Source: an uncultured Bacilli bacterium (GTDB lineage: Bacteria; Bacillota_I; Bacilli_A; RF39; UBA660). From it: DNA of 64,000 bases. The notes under the pieces were generated by a model that was given only the letters and a program-made list of their open reading frames with translations, was not told where the DNA came from and ran no database searches. Made by a program: the position numbers and the translations under genes. Where the stretch lies: assembly GCA_934167885.1 (NCBI GenBank), contig CAKPMB010000008.1, positions 65 to 64,064 on the forward strand. The letters are read 5' to 3'. The stretch's first letter is position 1, and every line of letters starts with the position of its first letter. Of the stretch, positions 956-8,788 are shown one piece after another.

Positions 956-1663
956 GTGCACAATCGAGTATTAATTGCGGAAGATGATAAAGATATTGTT
1001 GAACTTTTACGACTTTACTTAGAAAGTAATGGCTTTTCTGTTTTAACTGTTAATGATGGCATTGAAGCGCTTGGGGTTGTTAATGATGGTTTATGTGATA
1101 TATTATTGGCAGATTTAATGATGCCTAAAATGAATGGATATGATTTAATTAAAAAAATTCGTGAGACTAATCCACTACCAATTATCATTATATCCGCTAA
1201 AAATTTAGATGTTGATAAGGTTTTAGGTCTTAATATTGGCGCGGATGCATATATTACTAAGCCATTTAATCCATTAGAAGTTATTGCCTATGTTAAAGCT
1301 ACTTTGCGAAGATTTTATGAACTTGGCACAGATGGTTTATCAGATAGACCCAAAAACTTAGTAGTTGGTGATTTATCTTTAGAAATGGATAAATATATTT
1401 TAAGAAAAAATGGTATAGTAATTCCTATTACATCATCAGAATTAAAAATAATAACTAAACTTATGCAAAATCCTGGAAGGGTTTTCACAAAGACACAACT
1501 ATATGAATGTATAAATGGTGATTATTATGAAAATGATGATAATACAATGATGGTTCACATATCCAATATTAGATCAAAGATTGAGGATGATCCATCTAAT
1601 CCTAGATATATTAAAACAGTAAGGGGGTTAGGCTATAAAATTGAAGACGAACAAAAGATTTAG
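956..1663 (+). CDS. OmpR-family two-component response regulator (GTG start)
   Basis: Receiver domain (VLIAEDDKDIVELL...LLADLMMPKMNGYDL) and C-terminal winged-helix region (TVRGLGYKI). Confidence 0.85.
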   Translation: MHNRVLIAEDDKDIVELLRLYLESNGFSVLTVNDGIEALGVVNDGLCDILLADLMMPKMNGYDLIKKIRETNPLPIIIISAKNLDVDKVLGLNIGADAYITKPFNPLEVIAYVKATLRRFYELGTDGLSDRPKNLVVGDLSLEMDKYILRKNGIVIPITSSELKIITKLMQNPGRVFTKTQLYECINGDYYENDDNTMMVHISNIRSKIEDDPSNPRYIKTVRGLGYKIEDEQKI

Positions 1664-3221
1664 TTTAATTACTTTTTGTATTTTGTATTTTACATTGTGT
1701 GCATCTTTTATCTTGGTTATATTTTTAGTATCGACCTTAATATCTAATAAATTATTAAATGATAGTTTTCCAGTTATTGCGGATATTATTGAATATGATA
1801 ATTATTTAAAAAATGATGAATTTAATAAAATTCCCATAAAAAAGATTTTTGGTAGTGATTTTGCAGTTTATAACGGTGATAAAAGCCTATTATATAGCAG
1901 TGTTACCAGTATTTCTGTTGCTATTAAATCAGAAGATGATCTTGATTTTATTAATGATTATTCTAGTGATTCATATTATTCGGTTTTAAAATTAAAAGAT
2001 AAAAATAATAACGAAATAATTAAAATTTATGAATATACCTATGATTCTGAAGATGACCTTGAATCAATTACTGGTTATGCTAAATTAAATAGTGATTATG
2101 AGATTGTTGAAGGTGATTTATTCGCTTCTAAAAAAGTTATTACTAAAGACCAAATAGACTTAATTGAAGGTGAATATATTGATAGTCGTGTAATTGAAAA
2201 ATATTCTTATAAAAATAATGCGGATGAAGATCGTATATTGCTTTTTATCTCACCAGACTTTAATTTATCAAATTATGATAAGGCTTTAGCGAAATCGCGA
2301 AAGATATGGTTTGTTTCAATTCCAATTATTATCATAATTATGTGTCTTAGTGTTTATTTATTTAGCAAAAAAATAAAAAGATGTTTAAATATTTTAAATG
2401 ATGAAATATCTAATTATAAAGATGGTAATAAATTATCGACCAATAGTAATAAACTGCCGAAAGAATTTCAAAAAATTGCTCAGAGTTTTGATGAATTAAT
2501 GGTTTGTCTTAAAAAGTCAGAAGAAGAAAGAGTTAAAATGTATGAAGAAAAACAACGTTTAATCGCTGATATATCACATGATTTAAAGACACCGCTTACG
2601 GTTATTCAAGGTTATAGCAAAGCTTTTATGGATAATATTGTGCCCTCTTCTAAGAAAGATGAATATATTAAATCAATTTATAATAAGAGTGTTATTGCCT
2701 GTGAATTAATTGACCGCTTGTTTGACTATATTCGTCTTGAACATCCAGATTTTACGTTACCTAAAGAAAAAATTGATATATGTGAGATTAGTAAAGAATA
2801 TTTAGCCGAAAAATATAACGAAATAACGGATAAGAAAATGGAATTAATTGTGGATATTCCAGATGATAAAATAATGGCTAATATATCAGTTTCTTCAATT
2901 AGAAGAGTGTATGAAAACTTAATTAATAATTCACTTAAATATAATAAGGCTAAAACTAAAATATATTTTAAATTAAGTGATGATAACGAATATGTATCAA
3001 TAATAATCGCTGATAATGGGTGTGGTGTTCCTAAGGAAATACGTGATAATTTATTTGATGCTTTTGTTACAAGTAATGATGCTAGAACTTCTGGTAAAGG
3101 AAATGGTCTTGGTATGGCTATTGCTAAGAAAATTGTTCTATTACATGATGGTGAAATAACTTTATGTGATAAGCCTTTAAAAGGGTATAAGACAGAATTT
3201 GATATAAAGATAAAAAAATAA
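1641..3221 (+). CDS. Sensor histidine kinase (2 TM with ~190-aa extracytoplasmic domain; HisKA + HATPase_c)
   Basis: H-box 'ISHDLKTPLT', N-box 'NLINNSLKYN', G-boxes 'DNGCGVP' and 'GNGLGMAIAKK'. TTG start overlaps the regulator end. Confidence 0.85.
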   Translation: MKTNKRFSLITFCILYFTLCASFILVIFLVSTLISNKLLNDSFPVIADIIEYDNYLKNDEFNKIPIKKIFGSDFAVYNGDKSLLYSSVTSISVAIKSEDDLDFINDYSSDSYYSVLKLKDKNNNEIIKIYEYTYDSEDDLESITGYAKLNSDYEIVEGDLFASKKVITKDQIDLIEGEYIDSRVIEKYSYKNNADEDRILLFISPDFNLSNYDKALAKSRKIWFVSIPIIIIIMCLSVYLFSKKIKRCLNILNDEISNYKDGNKLSTNSNKLPKEFQKIAQSFDELMVCLKKSEEERVKMYEEKQRLIADISHDLKTPLTVIQGYSKAFMDNIVPSSKKDEYIKSIYNKSVIACELIDRLFDYIRLEHPDFTLPKEKIDICEISKEYLAEKYNEITDKKMELIVDIPDDKIMANISVSSIRRVYENLINNSLKYNKAKTKIYFKLSDDNEYVSIIIADNGCGVPKEIRDNLFDAFVTSNDARTSGKGNGLGMAIAKKIVLLHDGEITLCDKPLKGYKTEFDIKIKK

Positions 3222-3302
3222 TGTTTCTTAATAAAAATTAAGGTGAAGTAAAGGTAATATAAAACTTCACTTTTTATAATAGTCATATATTTTGGAGTAG
3301 TT

Positions 3303-7804: not shown

Positions 7805-7813
7805 GGGGGATGT

Positions 7814-8788
7814 ATGAAAAAATATATAAAAAATATTGTGAAATCTATAACTTTTTTTGGGGTTTTAGTTGTTTTATTGTTAGTGTTATCATACGTATTT
7901 ATGCCTAAAAATAATGATGACGCATATGGTGGTCATCATCAATTAAACGCTAATGGTATTTTTGGTGAAGCGGATAATTCTATTGATGTTTTAGTAATAG
8001 GTGATAGTGAGTCATATACGTCCATTGTTCCTTTAGAATTATGGCATAATTATGGTTATACAACATACATTTGTGGAACATCGGGGCAACTTTTATATGA
8101 TACATATGACTATTTAATAAAAGCACTTCAAAATCAAAAGCCCAAAGTTGTTATTATGGAAACCAATGCTATTTACCGTAAAGTGCGTGCAGATAAGGCT
8201 TTAAATTCATGGGCTAAAAAAACTTTTTCTGTATTTAAATATCATAATCGTTTTAAAAAGTTAACAAAAGATGATTTTTTAAGTAGAAGAAAAAATACAT
8301 GGGTGGATGATTATAAAGGATTTGAATTAAATGATAAAGTTGATTCATTAGATAAAGTGCATGATTATATGAAATATACCGATGAACATGAAGAAATAAA
8401 TAGTTTAAATATGCGTTATTTAAACAAAATTGTTGAAAAATGTCAGGAAAATAATATTAAGTTAGTTTTTGTTAGTGCTCCAAGTGTTAAAAATTGGTCT
8501 TATAAAAGACATAATGGTGTTTATGATTATGCTAGAAAAAATAATATTGATTTTATTGACTTAAATTTAAAACAAGAAGAAATAAATATTGATTGGCATA
8601 CGGATACTCGTGATAAAGGAGATCATTTAAATTATTGGGGAGCGTTGAAAGCAACTGAATATATGGGAAACTATTTAAGTGATTTGGATATATTAAAAGA
8701 TCGCCGTAATGATAAAATCGCTGAAAAATGGAATCAATCATATAACCGATACCAAAAACGTGTTAGCAAATTTAATCGTAATGTTTAA
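7814..8788 (+). CDS. DltD-like / SGNH-fold membrane-anchored protein
   Basis: N-terminal TM, then 'VLVIGDSESYTS' (GDSE-type serine motif) and C-terminal 'DTRDKGDHLNY' (D-x-x-H). Confidence 0.55.
   Translation: MKKYIKNIVKSITFFGVLVVLLLVLSYVFMPKNNDDAYGGHHQLNANGIFGEADNSIDVLVIGDSESYTSIVPLELWHNYGYTTYICGTSGQLLYDTYDYLIKALQNQKPKVVIMETNAIYRKVRADKALNSWAKKTFSVFKYHNRFKKLTKDDFLSRRKNTWVDDYKGFELNDKVDSLDKVHDYMKYTDEHEEINSLNMRYLNKIVEKCQENNIKLVFVSAPSVKNWSYKRHNGVYDYARKNNIDFIDLNLKQEEINIDWHTDTRDKGDHLNYWGALKATEYMGNYLSDLDILKDRRNDKIAEKWNQSYNRYQKRVSKFNRNV

Follow-up and report, generated by a model that had tools for sequence, protein, structure and literature searches.

A conserved gene cassette of gut bacteria that may load, decarboxylate and export an amino acid to the cell envelope

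Introduction

In Gram-positive bacteria, D-alanylation by the Dlt system is a textbook factor in surface charge, in resistance to antimicrobial peptides and in interaction with the host. Here we describe a locus at positions 956-8788 of a 64,000-nt stretch of DNA (hereafter the window) from an uncultured Bacilli bacterium of the RF39 lineage (GenBank assembly GCA_934167885.1, contig CAKPMB010000008.1, positions 65 to 64,064), in which a dlt-like gene set carries a pyridoxal phosphate (PLP)-dependent decarboxylase between its adenylation enzyme and its carrier protein. Related steps are known from antibiotic biosynthesis. In the butirosin pathway the loading enzyme BtrJ is an ATP-grasp ligase and not an adenylation enzyme, and FlvN, FlvL and FlvO of fluvirucin biosynthesis form starter-unit modules related to VinN, VinL and VinO. 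The butirosin decarboxylase BtrK acts on glutamyl-S-BtrI (PMC7857480); the name BtrK is also in use for an unrelated Clostridium kinase. In vicenistatin biosynthesis VinN attaches 3-methylaspartate to VinL, a stand-alone acyl carrier protein (ACP), and the acyl-ACP is the substrate that the PLP enzyme VinO decarboxylates, so that thioester formation must precede decarboxylation (PMC11284099). On the export side, pathways that pair an MBOAT with an SGNH protein, other than Dlt itself, work without a carrier protein, and in both DltX and PatA the Tyr of an FXYXXF motif carries the acyl group from the MBOAT to its SGNH partner, NgPatA ending in FIYANF (PMC12148441).

A sequence-only reading of the window had proposed, on the butirosin precedent, that the locus tethers an amino acid to a carrier, decarboxylates it there and transfers the product to an envelope polymer. 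Several elements of that interpretation have gained support in the present analysis and none of those tested was contradicted, while three were corrected, namely the type of the MBOAT, the identity of the SGNH protein and the closest precedent. In the open-access papers and preprints searched, we found no published description of the cassette, nor of beta-alanylation or GABA-ylation (addition of gamma-aminobutyrate, GABA) of a bacterial envelope polymer. The components are each of a known kind; their combination and its predicted product are undescribed in the literature searched.

A conserved five-gene module

The seven open reading frames (ORFs) of the sequence-only reading are all present, all on the + strand, in a window of about 27% G+C. 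Downstream of two regulatory genes lie a stand-alone adenylation enzyme of the ANL superfamily (A; 494 aa, 3303-4787, TIGR01733), a BtrK-like fold-type III PLP decarboxylase (DC; 399 aa, 4784-5983, Pfam PF02784 and PF00278), a carrier protein (CP; 76 aa, 5983-6213, PP-binding) with its phosphopantetheine serine, Ser32, in FLDSLAI, an MBOAT acyltransferase (529 aa, 6215-7804, Pfam MBOAT) and a predicted membrane-anchored, extracytoplasmic SGNH acyltransferase or esterase (ORF7; 324 aa, 7814-8788). The non-canonical order A-decarboxylase-C-B-D is evident from the ORF list, and the motifs reported earlier (TSGSTGVPKG, NQAPFDFD, YGPTE, YKTGD, DSLA, FAMKANP, YGGGFP, ELGRSI, CGSLCTIND and GDSE) can all be read in the translations. 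Domain assignments are backed by Pfam and NCBIfam for every protein of the locus except ORF7, which has no family match. The A and DC genes overlap by 4 nt and those of DC and CP by 1 nt, while gaps of only 1 nt and 9 nt separate CP from MBOAT and MBOAT from ORF7, an arrangement which argues that the five genes form one translationally coupled unit.

Scanning for relatives of the decarboxylase, with one genome kept per species, yielded 80 loci. That the decarboxylase would co-occur with the adenylation enzyme and carrier in other genomes had been put forward as a test of the first reading, and A, DC and CP are indeed contiguous and in that order in 74 of the 80. An MBOAT gene lies within 9 kb of this trio in 72 loci, and an ORF7 homologue is found near it in 58 loci by tblastn and in 66 by clustering. 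The hosts are Bacilli (RF39-like metagenome-assembled genomes, MAGs, and Erysipelotrichales), Lachnospiraceae, Oscillospiraceae, Christensenellales and Treponema. The MBOAT-SGNH pair is placed downstream of the trio in most lineages and upstream of it in Coprobacillus, Massilimicrobiota, Christensenella and Treponema MAGs, and sequence identity falls in parallel for all five proteins, from about 65% to about 40%. With the same gene set in 80 loci from different species, A-DC-CP-MBOAT-SGNH is a conserved module and not a chance neighbourhood.

All-against-all clustering of every ORF in these loci revealed no further widely conserved gene. What recurs beyond the five-gene core is the response regulator (32 loci), the histidine kinase (22 plus 7) and two ABC exporter genes (14 close loci). 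Additional conserved genes for making an unusual amino acid were sought among the loci and none was found; the module thus appears to be self-contained and should draw on a common metabolite. The two exporter genes (ABC_membrane and ABC_tran; one encodes about 750 aa in L001) stand directly upstream of the response regulator and on the same strand in the 14 close loci (L001-L016, within about 0-4.1 kb of each), and are absent from that position in the window's species.

The decarboxylase resembles carrier-dependent enzymes

Judged by its sequence, DC is not LysA and resembles carrier-dependent decarboxylases. Its two Pfam domains and its position confirm the earlier placement of a PLP enzyme of the diaminopimelate decarboxylase (DAPDC)/ornithine decarboxylase (ODC) family between ligase and carrier. 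The best-scoring NCBIfam model is TIGR03099 at 173.5 bits (cut-off 478); the lysA model TIGR01048 scores 162.2 bits (cut-off 297.9). Among PDB sequences the best match is BtrK, the L-glutamyl-[BtrI ACP] decarboxylase, at 101 bits, with DAPDCs reaching at most 93 bits; in structural alignment DC and BtrK are about 20% identical. A structure model of DC has a pLDDT (predicted local distance difference test) of 72.8, low because the underlying alignment is shallow, and the fold search that it seeded, which ranks SbnH and BtrK just above D-ornithine/lysine decarboxylase and DAPDC, is accordingly weak evidence.

The active site is more informative. When 77 family members were aligned with BtrK and the Helicobacter pylori DAPDC, the catalytic set of Lys47, Glu249/Arg252, Cys321 and Tyr350 proved to be conserved across the 77 sequences. 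The DC family and BtrK have Cys-Thr where the H. pylori enzyme has Cys-Glu-Ser (CES), and both have an aromatic residue in place of its PLP-stacking His. The RP..LY segment of DAPDC is lost in the DC family, as it is in BtrK, and the family has an invariant YYGQMMAM(K/R)xP in its stead. We take the two missing elements to bind the distal centre of diaminopimelate (DAP) in DAPDC, RP..LY as a clamp on the distal carboxylate and the Glu of CES as a ligand of the distal amino group. The lid loop that follows the RLTSG strand is shorter by 19 residues in the DC family, whereas BtrK has kept it in full. Relatives of DC are named 'diaminopimelate decarboxylase' in public records, and the sequence-only reading had named a plain lysA orthologue as the case that would undo it; with a score below the TIGR01048 cut-off and both CES and RP..LY missing, the sequence of DC does not fit that case. 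The locus thus has the gene set of a carrier-dependent system: a loading enzyme, a stand-alone carrier and, beside them, a fold-type III decarboxylase whose catalytic residues are all in place. The butirosin analogy holds in that BtrK is the best solved sequence match of DC; it does not extend to the ligase, since BtrJ belongs to another enzyme class, and VinN/VinL/VinO is the closer precedent.

Another DAPDC-like gene annotated lysA and adjoining a carrier protein gene was observed on a Bacillus mycoides conjugative plasmid (NZ_CP150649.1, 12051-27214). This butirosin-side-chain-like set comprises an ATP-grasp protein, an amidohydrolase, the 'lysA' (29% identical to DC), an acyl-CoA dehydrogenase-family protein, a phosphopantetheine-binding protein, acpS and an AMP-binding protein.

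Adenylation enzyme, carrier protein and likely substrate

From its scores and its predicted pocket, the adenylation enzyme A is not DltA. It matches TIGR01733 at 289.7 bits and the DltA models TIGR01734 and NF003417 at 252.3 and 270.6 bits (cut-offs 559.85 and 476), and against PDB sequences it scores 295 bits with LgrA, 204 with PheA and 187 with DltA, closer therefore to the adenylation domains of nonribosomal peptide synthetases (NRPS). The ten specificity positions were taken against GrsA-PheA, whose sequence was verified by finding the published residues at their published numbers, and the Bacillus subtilis DltA sequence was verified against PDB 3E7W. The resulting code is DVKILSLCNK, with 73 of 74 loci reading DVK[ITV][LMF]S[LV]CNK. 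The DltA code, DLMTMCTVAK, has nothing in common with it beyond the universal Asp235 and Lys517, the other 8 of the 10 positions being different; at the PheA-301 position A has Ser where the D-Ala pocket of DltA has Cys. Alignment with the DltA pocket, which the sequence-only reading had suggested as a check, thus reveals a pocket that is not DltA-like and an invariant Lys239 that would suit a dicarboxylic substrate. In adenylation domains that activate Glu, Lys239 is the partner of the substrate's side-chain carboxylate (Stachelhaus codes). Since an invariant lysine there would be pointless for beta-alanine, GABA or D-alanine, it favours a dicarboxylic substrate loaded before decarboxylation.

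Which dicarboxylic amino acid is used can be suggested from the remainder of the pocket. By analogy with the beta-amino-acid enzyme VinN, Asp235 can bind an alpha- or a beta-amino group. Because it is retained and positions 278, 299 and 322 hold bulky residues, aspartate activated through its beta-carboxyl is the first choice. A free gamma-aminobutyryl thioester is prone to lactamisation, and the butirosin pathway therefore uses a protecting group. The retained Asp235, the bulky pocket and the lack of any protecting-group function in the operon favour a beta-alanyl over a GABA product. We tentatively propose conversion of Asp to a beta-alanyl group as the chemistry of the cassette, and consider conversion of Glu to GABA unlikely.

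The carrier protein is equally distant from its Dlt counterpart. CP matches PP-binding at 22.9 bits and the DltC model NF003464 at 23.7 bits (cut-off 68), generic models of acyl and peptidyl carrier proteins (PCPs) score it as well or better, and its PDB matches, to PCPs and DltC, are weak. A pattern search found the carrier serine motif (L/I/V/M/F/Y)-x-D-S-(L/I/V/M/F) in 67 of the 80 loci.

A putative export pair with a fused shuttle motif

The MBOAT had been described as DltB/AlgI-like. It does belong to the MBOAT family and its features place it with PatA and AlgI; the DltB part of the description does not stand. The DltB model TIGR04091 scores 166.1 bits (cut-off 375). DltB is its sole solved homologue (86 bits, in an alignment that spans both WH motifs, with His305 and His362), but the protein is about 130 residues longer than DltB (about 400 aa) and has two extra C-terminal transmembrane (TM) helices by TM scan. 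It ends in the FXYXXF-type hexapeptide P-L-Y526-A-N-F (7784-7801), identified by comparing family C-termini with the published motif (PMC12148441). This ending is general, as 68 of 69 complete family MBOATs end in [PFL][ILMV]Y[AGM]xF, the first position being often Pro rather than Phe. With the PLYANF shuttle motif fused to the MBOAT no DltX should be needed, and the ORF list shows no room for a DltX-type micro-ORF between the cassette genes. By these sequence features the MBOAT is of the PatA/AlgI type and not of the DltB type.

ORF7 was first read as SGNH/DltD-like, and here too one half of the description was retained. The SGNH fold is confirmed, with the serine in GDSE: all 58 sequences compared have Ser65 and His271, 56 of them also have Asp267, and a single N-terminal TM helix spans residues 12-30. 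Orthology to DltD was rejected, there being no family match and the fold search placing generic SGNH proteins and PatB above DltD, which leaves a generic membrane-anchored SGNH protein. The locus therefore has the conserved MBOAT histidine and C-terminal acyl-shuttle hexapeptide of a PatA/PatB-type pair, as well as the adjacent extracytoplasmic SGNH protein with its Ser-His-Asp triad. The third mark of such pairs, an acyl-CoA donor used without a carrier, appears not to apply, given that A and CP are encoded in the same operon in 74-80 of the 80 loci. The family of ORF7 is large: searched against 1.84 billion proteins, its SGNH profile matches 2,934 cluster representatives at E<=1e-30. One representative of 924 aa (P0306) has two stretches that match the profile and may be a tandem or fused form.

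Candidate acceptor polymers

Genomic context offers hints about the acceptor. In the window's species a TagF-family glycerophosphotransferase and glycosyltransferases are encoded about 8 kb upstream of the cassette, and in Treponema MAGs the trio lies among MBOATs, a UDP-glucose dehydrogenase, a TagF-like protein, a possibly LtaS-like protein with a sulfatase/phosphodiesterase domain, and an epimerase. These TagF-like and sugar-nucleotide contexts point to a phosphate-containing glycopolymer or polysaccharide as the predicted acceptor.

In loci L084/L085 of the window's species (positions 1-3887, 6-10 kb upstream of the response regulator), the teichoic-acid-type synthesis genes encode a Glyco_tran_28_C protein, a GT2 glycosyltransferase, the TagF-family protein (PF04464) and a 498-aa protein with no Pfam match, and are separated from the cassette by a truncated rve-family transposase. 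The window itself holds a secondary cell-wall polymer cluster at 34131-46276, with an LCP ligase, GT2 and GT1 glycosyltransferases, an EpsG-type polymerase, a TupA-like ATP-grasp protein (teichuronopeptide type), a 503-aa protein with no Pfam match, a DUF362 protein and an EamA transporter. Its polymer is a possible acceptor, though nothing links the cluster to the cassette.

Proposed mechanism and its alternatives

Taken together, the components suggest the following route. A would activate a small dicarboxylic amino acid, most likely L-aspartate through its beta-carboxyl and next glutamate through its gamma-carboxyl, and thioesterify it to the phosphopantetheine arm of the 76-aa CP. The BtrK/VinO-like DC would strip the free alpha-carboxyl from the tethered residue, leaving an omega-aminoacyl-S-carrier (beta-alanyl or gamma-aminobutyryl). 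The MBOAT would then take the acyl group from CP at the cytoplasmic face and move it to its own Tyr526 on the outer face, where Ser65 of the SGNH protein could pick it up and esterify a surface polymer, be it a teichoic-acid-like glycopolymer, another polysaccharide or peptidoglycan. The operon would be switched on by the two-component system through a box upstream of A, presumably upon envelope-directed stress. With VinN/VinL/VinO and BtrK the cytoplasmic half has direct biochemical precedent, in antibiotic biosynthesis only. On balance we lean towards the general mechanism of carrier loading, on-carrier decarboxylation and MBOAT-SGNH transfer to an envelope polymer. The fuller proposal, that the cassette is a mobile, two-component-inducible system which esterifies beta-alanine or GABA onto teichoic-acid-like polymers or peptidoglycan and, by adding positive charge, acts as a determinant of resistance to antimicrobial peptides or antibiotics, is offered more tentatively.

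Other chemistries could be built from the same cytoplasmic genes. Decarboxylation might come first, with DC turning free Asp into beta-alanine, or free meso-DAP into lysine, and A loading the product on CP for transfer by the MBOAT and SGNH protein. Dicarboxylic substrates would leave products that keep one carboxylate for A to activate, and most members of the family (DAPDC, ODC, SbnH) do use free small molecules. Yet Lys239 of A would then lack an acidic partner in beta-alanine or GABA, DC has lost the motifs that distinguish DAPDC and shares BtrK-specific positions, the order A-DC-CP is invariant with overlapping genes, and the characterised relatives with such a trio, BtrK and VinO, require an acyl-carrier; we regard this order of events as rather improbable. 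A related scheme would have A activate the alpha-carboxyl of meso- or LL-DAP and DC decarboxylate the distal centre, giving lysyl-S-CP and in the end a doubly cationic lysyl ester. DC falls within the DAPDC clade, Asp235 and Lys517 fit the binding of an alpha-amino acid with Lys239 facing the distal carboxylate, and loss of RP..LY would be expected if its presumed ligand, the distal carboxylate, were the thioester. However, the CES Glu, which we take to bind the distal amino group, is Thr in DC as in BtrK, residues Ile278, Leu299 and Leu322 look too bulky for a seven-carbon substrate, and direct loading of lysine would be possible, so that the detour brings no obvious benefit; lysylation by this path seems improbable. 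It is highly improbable that DC is no decarboxylase here and instead epimerises the tethered residue or beta-decarboxylates Asp-S-CP to Ala-S-CP, which would provide a D-aminoacyl or alanyl donor without free D-alanine. Such a role would agree with alpha-activation as suggested by Asp235 and Lys517, with Lys239 on the side-chain carboxylate, and alanine racemase shares the fold, but the cross-match of DC to PF01168 (alanine racemase) is weak at 26.4 bits, the decarboxylase-type catalytic set is fully conserved, and to our knowledge no such chemistry occurs in the ODC/DAPDC clade. The most ordinary account, a host lysA inserted by chance into a divergent D-alanylating dlt operon, draws on the public annotation of DC relatives and on the weak DltA, DltC and DltB similarity of A, CP and the MBOAT. 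It is largely refuted, and we give it hardly any credence: neither the four Dlt models nor the LysA model come anywhere near their cut-offs, the active-site motifs and the specificity code disagree with it, the decarboxylase stays in the cassette in 74 of 80 loci across phyla, and it travels with the cassette beside mobile-element genes in Streptococcus suis, a species known to have its own dlt operon.

Several observations weigh against on-carrier decarboxylation of a dicarboxylic amino acid for an envelope glycopolymer. The code of A matches no specificity code known to us, and we take its nearest resemblance to be to Ser codes (DVWHLSLIDK), so that the substrate call rests mainly on Lys239. 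Positions 330 and 331 of A are Cys and Asn, and the Lys330/Arg331 solution by which VinN accommodates a free carboxylate is therefore unused. The lead of BtrK over the DAPDCs is small, and the quality of the DC model modest. On the export side, MBOAT-SGNH pairs serve several acceptors (PMC12148441), modifying peptidoglycan, alginate, cellulose and teichoic acid, and N-terminal acetylation of lipoproteins is the subject of a further paper (PMC12345273). The same chemistry might accordingly serve lipoprotein N-termini, a membrane lipid or a secreted small molecule, and the five-gene core indeed contains no glycopolymer gene; the TagF-like and sugar-nucleotide genes that flank the Treponema trio and lie 8 kb upstream in the window's species, along with DltB as the closest solved MBOAT, are contextual hints in the other direction, and we consider a non-glycopolymer acceptor improbable as well. 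Transfer of a carrier-made omega-aminoacyl group to an envelope polymer remains our preferred account of the cassette.

Probable regulation by the adjacent two-component system

The genes upstream of A encode an OmpR-family response regulator (RR; 235 aa, 956-1663, Pfam Response_reg and Trans_reg_C) and a sensor histidine kinase (HK; 526 aa, 1641-3221, HisKA and HATPase_c), which the sequence-only reading had put forward as possible regulators of the cassette. This suggestion gains support from synteny of the two-component system with the cassette in 32 of 81 loci and from a conserved 16-bp box, CTTAATAAAAATTAAG (3227-3242, + strand), found by comparison of the 82-nt spacer between HK and A. 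The box contains two TTAA cores 10 bp apart and can alternatively be read as a palindrome, CTTAAK-N4-ATTAAG. The exact 16-mer (K at position 6) has a single copy in the 64-kb window and a single copy in every one of 21 related loci. It invariably precedes gene A, and the spacers around it have otherwise diverged, which is good comparative evidence for a putative operator of the adjacent OmpR-family regulator. Direct reading of the sequence also gives a candidate -10-like hexamer, TATAAT (3276-3281, a consensus match), which follows the box by 33 nt and precedes the A start codon by 21 nt, and a candidate ribosome-binding site of gene A, GGAG (3293-3296), both on the + strand. Scans for promoters and terminators returned no more sites than shuffled controls and were left out of the evidence.

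The best NCBIfam matches of RR are VanR-type, YycF and MtrA, all below cut-off (VanR family 209.9 bits, cut-off 350), and that of HK is VanS at 132 bits (cut-off 400). Assignment to VanRS or another named system was rejected, as no equivalog cut-off was reached, and the two are generic OmpR/EnvZ-class proteins. A hydropathy scan of HK places two TM helices (12-30 and 222-240) around an extracytoplasmic domain of about 190 aa, for which a word-index search found no relatives.

Possible mobility and genomic surroundings

An S. suis locus (GCA_029593505.1, 1-15063) carries the cassette in a different setting. Its genes encode, in order, a relaxase, an HTH protein, a DUF3173 protein, a tyrosine integrase, RR, HK, A, DC, CP, MBOAT, SGNH, a P-type ATPase and guaA. 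The G+C content of the cassette is about 29-31% there against 33-39% in the flanks, a modest difference, and no att repeats of the element were found within the 16 kb examined. Horizontal mobility of the cassette is suggested by this gene context. Carriage by phages was considered and rejected, no relatives being found in IMG/VR, as was carriage by plasmids, where no match exceeds 29% identity and the contexts are unrelated (the btr-like cluster of the B. mycoides plasmid is an example).

Elsewhere in the window, at 12662-20604, a cell-wall amidase gene (Amidase_3 and five LysM) is split by an element of about 6.5 kb with junctions near 12934-12950 and 19480-19500. The N-terminal (12662-12958) and C-terminal (19549-20604) pieces jointly match the intact 403-aa amidase of the relative L001. 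The element encodes a large serine recombinase (15620-17203) and a Fic protein whose N-terminus is excisionase-like (17236-18210), besides three ORFs with no known function, and its ends carry the inverted repeats ATCATTGTGTAA and TTACACAATGA, adjoining a shared GGTGG core. Its place just upstream of spoIIGA-sigE makes it look like an element of the skin type, whose excision would accompany sporulation. The genes spoIIGA, a sigE-like sigma factor and spoVAD (20921-22435 and 31741-32736) indicate that the host, a gut Firmicute represented by metagenome assemblies only, is a spore-former, although its closest named relatives are labelled 'Tenericutes', 'Mycoplasma sp. CAG' or 'uncultured Bacilli'. 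On the - strand at 46826-49418, a 601-aa AMP-binding enzyme forms an unusual pair with an overlapping 300-aa protein that has a 2-oxoacid dehydrogenase acyltransferase domain.

Significance

If the proposed mechanism is correct, the cassette would represent a cationic modification of the envelope that has not been known before. It would be widespread in gut Firmicutes and would also occur in an S. suis strain, where the integrase and relaxase genes beside it would make it a candidate transferable resistance module. Its MBOAT would be the first of PatA/AlgI architecture to take its acyl group from a carrier protein instead of acyl-CoA, broadening the donor range of MBOATs. A second aminoacylation route, made of a Dlt-like donor, a natural-product-style decarboxylase and a PatA-type MBOAT, would revise the picture of envelope charge in many uncultured gut species. 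Additionally, the systematic mis-annotation of DC relatives as 'diaminopimelate decarboxylase' would be corrected.

Comparison with known systems

LysA shares with DC its fold, its clade and the conserved catalytic Lys, Cys and Glu/Arg, but DC falls below the family cut-off, lacks CES and RP..LY, has a shorter lid loop and is encoded by a gene fixed inside a cassette. The functionally uncharacterised pair of TIGR03098 acyl-CoA ligase and TIGR03099 PLP decarboxylase, tied to exopolysaccharide loci with exosortase A, comes near in that TIGR03099 is the best NCBIfam match of DC. The scores are nevertheless far below the cut-offs (155 bits for A against TIGR03098, cut-off 592), the host is a Gram-positive spore-former, and no exosortase gene is present among the annotated genes of the window.

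BtrK acts on carrier-tethered glutamate and shares family-specific positions with DC, whereas the locus has no downstream btr-type tailoring genes and the DC lid loop is 19 residues shorter than that of BtrK. The closest match to the proposed cytoplasmic chemistry is VinN/VinL/VinO, with an ANL enzyme, a stand-alone ACP and a PLP decarboxylase that acts on acyl-ACP only and turns tethered (methyl)aspartate into a beta-amino-acyl-ACP; VinO is set beside DC by its described chemistry and gene set and not by sequence. The Vin proteins supply the polyketide synthases of actinomycetes and depend on a second aminoacylation for protection, while the product of the cassette would pass to MBOAT-SGNH export.

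The Dlt system (DltA, DltC, DltB, DltX and DltD) provides the overall plan of carrier loading by an adenylation enzyme, passage across the membrane by an MBOAT and delivery to a polymer by an anchored SGNH protein. The cassette departs from it in components that score below the Dlt cut-offs, another specificity code, a PLP decarboxylase between A and CP, the absence of DltX, the order A-DC-C-B-D and an ORF7 that is no closer to DltD than to generic GDSL proteins. In its export half it is instead like PatA/PatB, AlgI/AlgJ/AlgX and WssH, which have an MBOAT with two extra C-terminal helices and an FXYXXF end and a separate SGNH transferase. Those systems use acetyl-CoA, whereas the cassette has a dedicated adenylation enzyme and carrier; it would thus combine a Dlt-type donor with a PatA-type MBOAT, as an exception to the carrier-free pathways outside Dlt.

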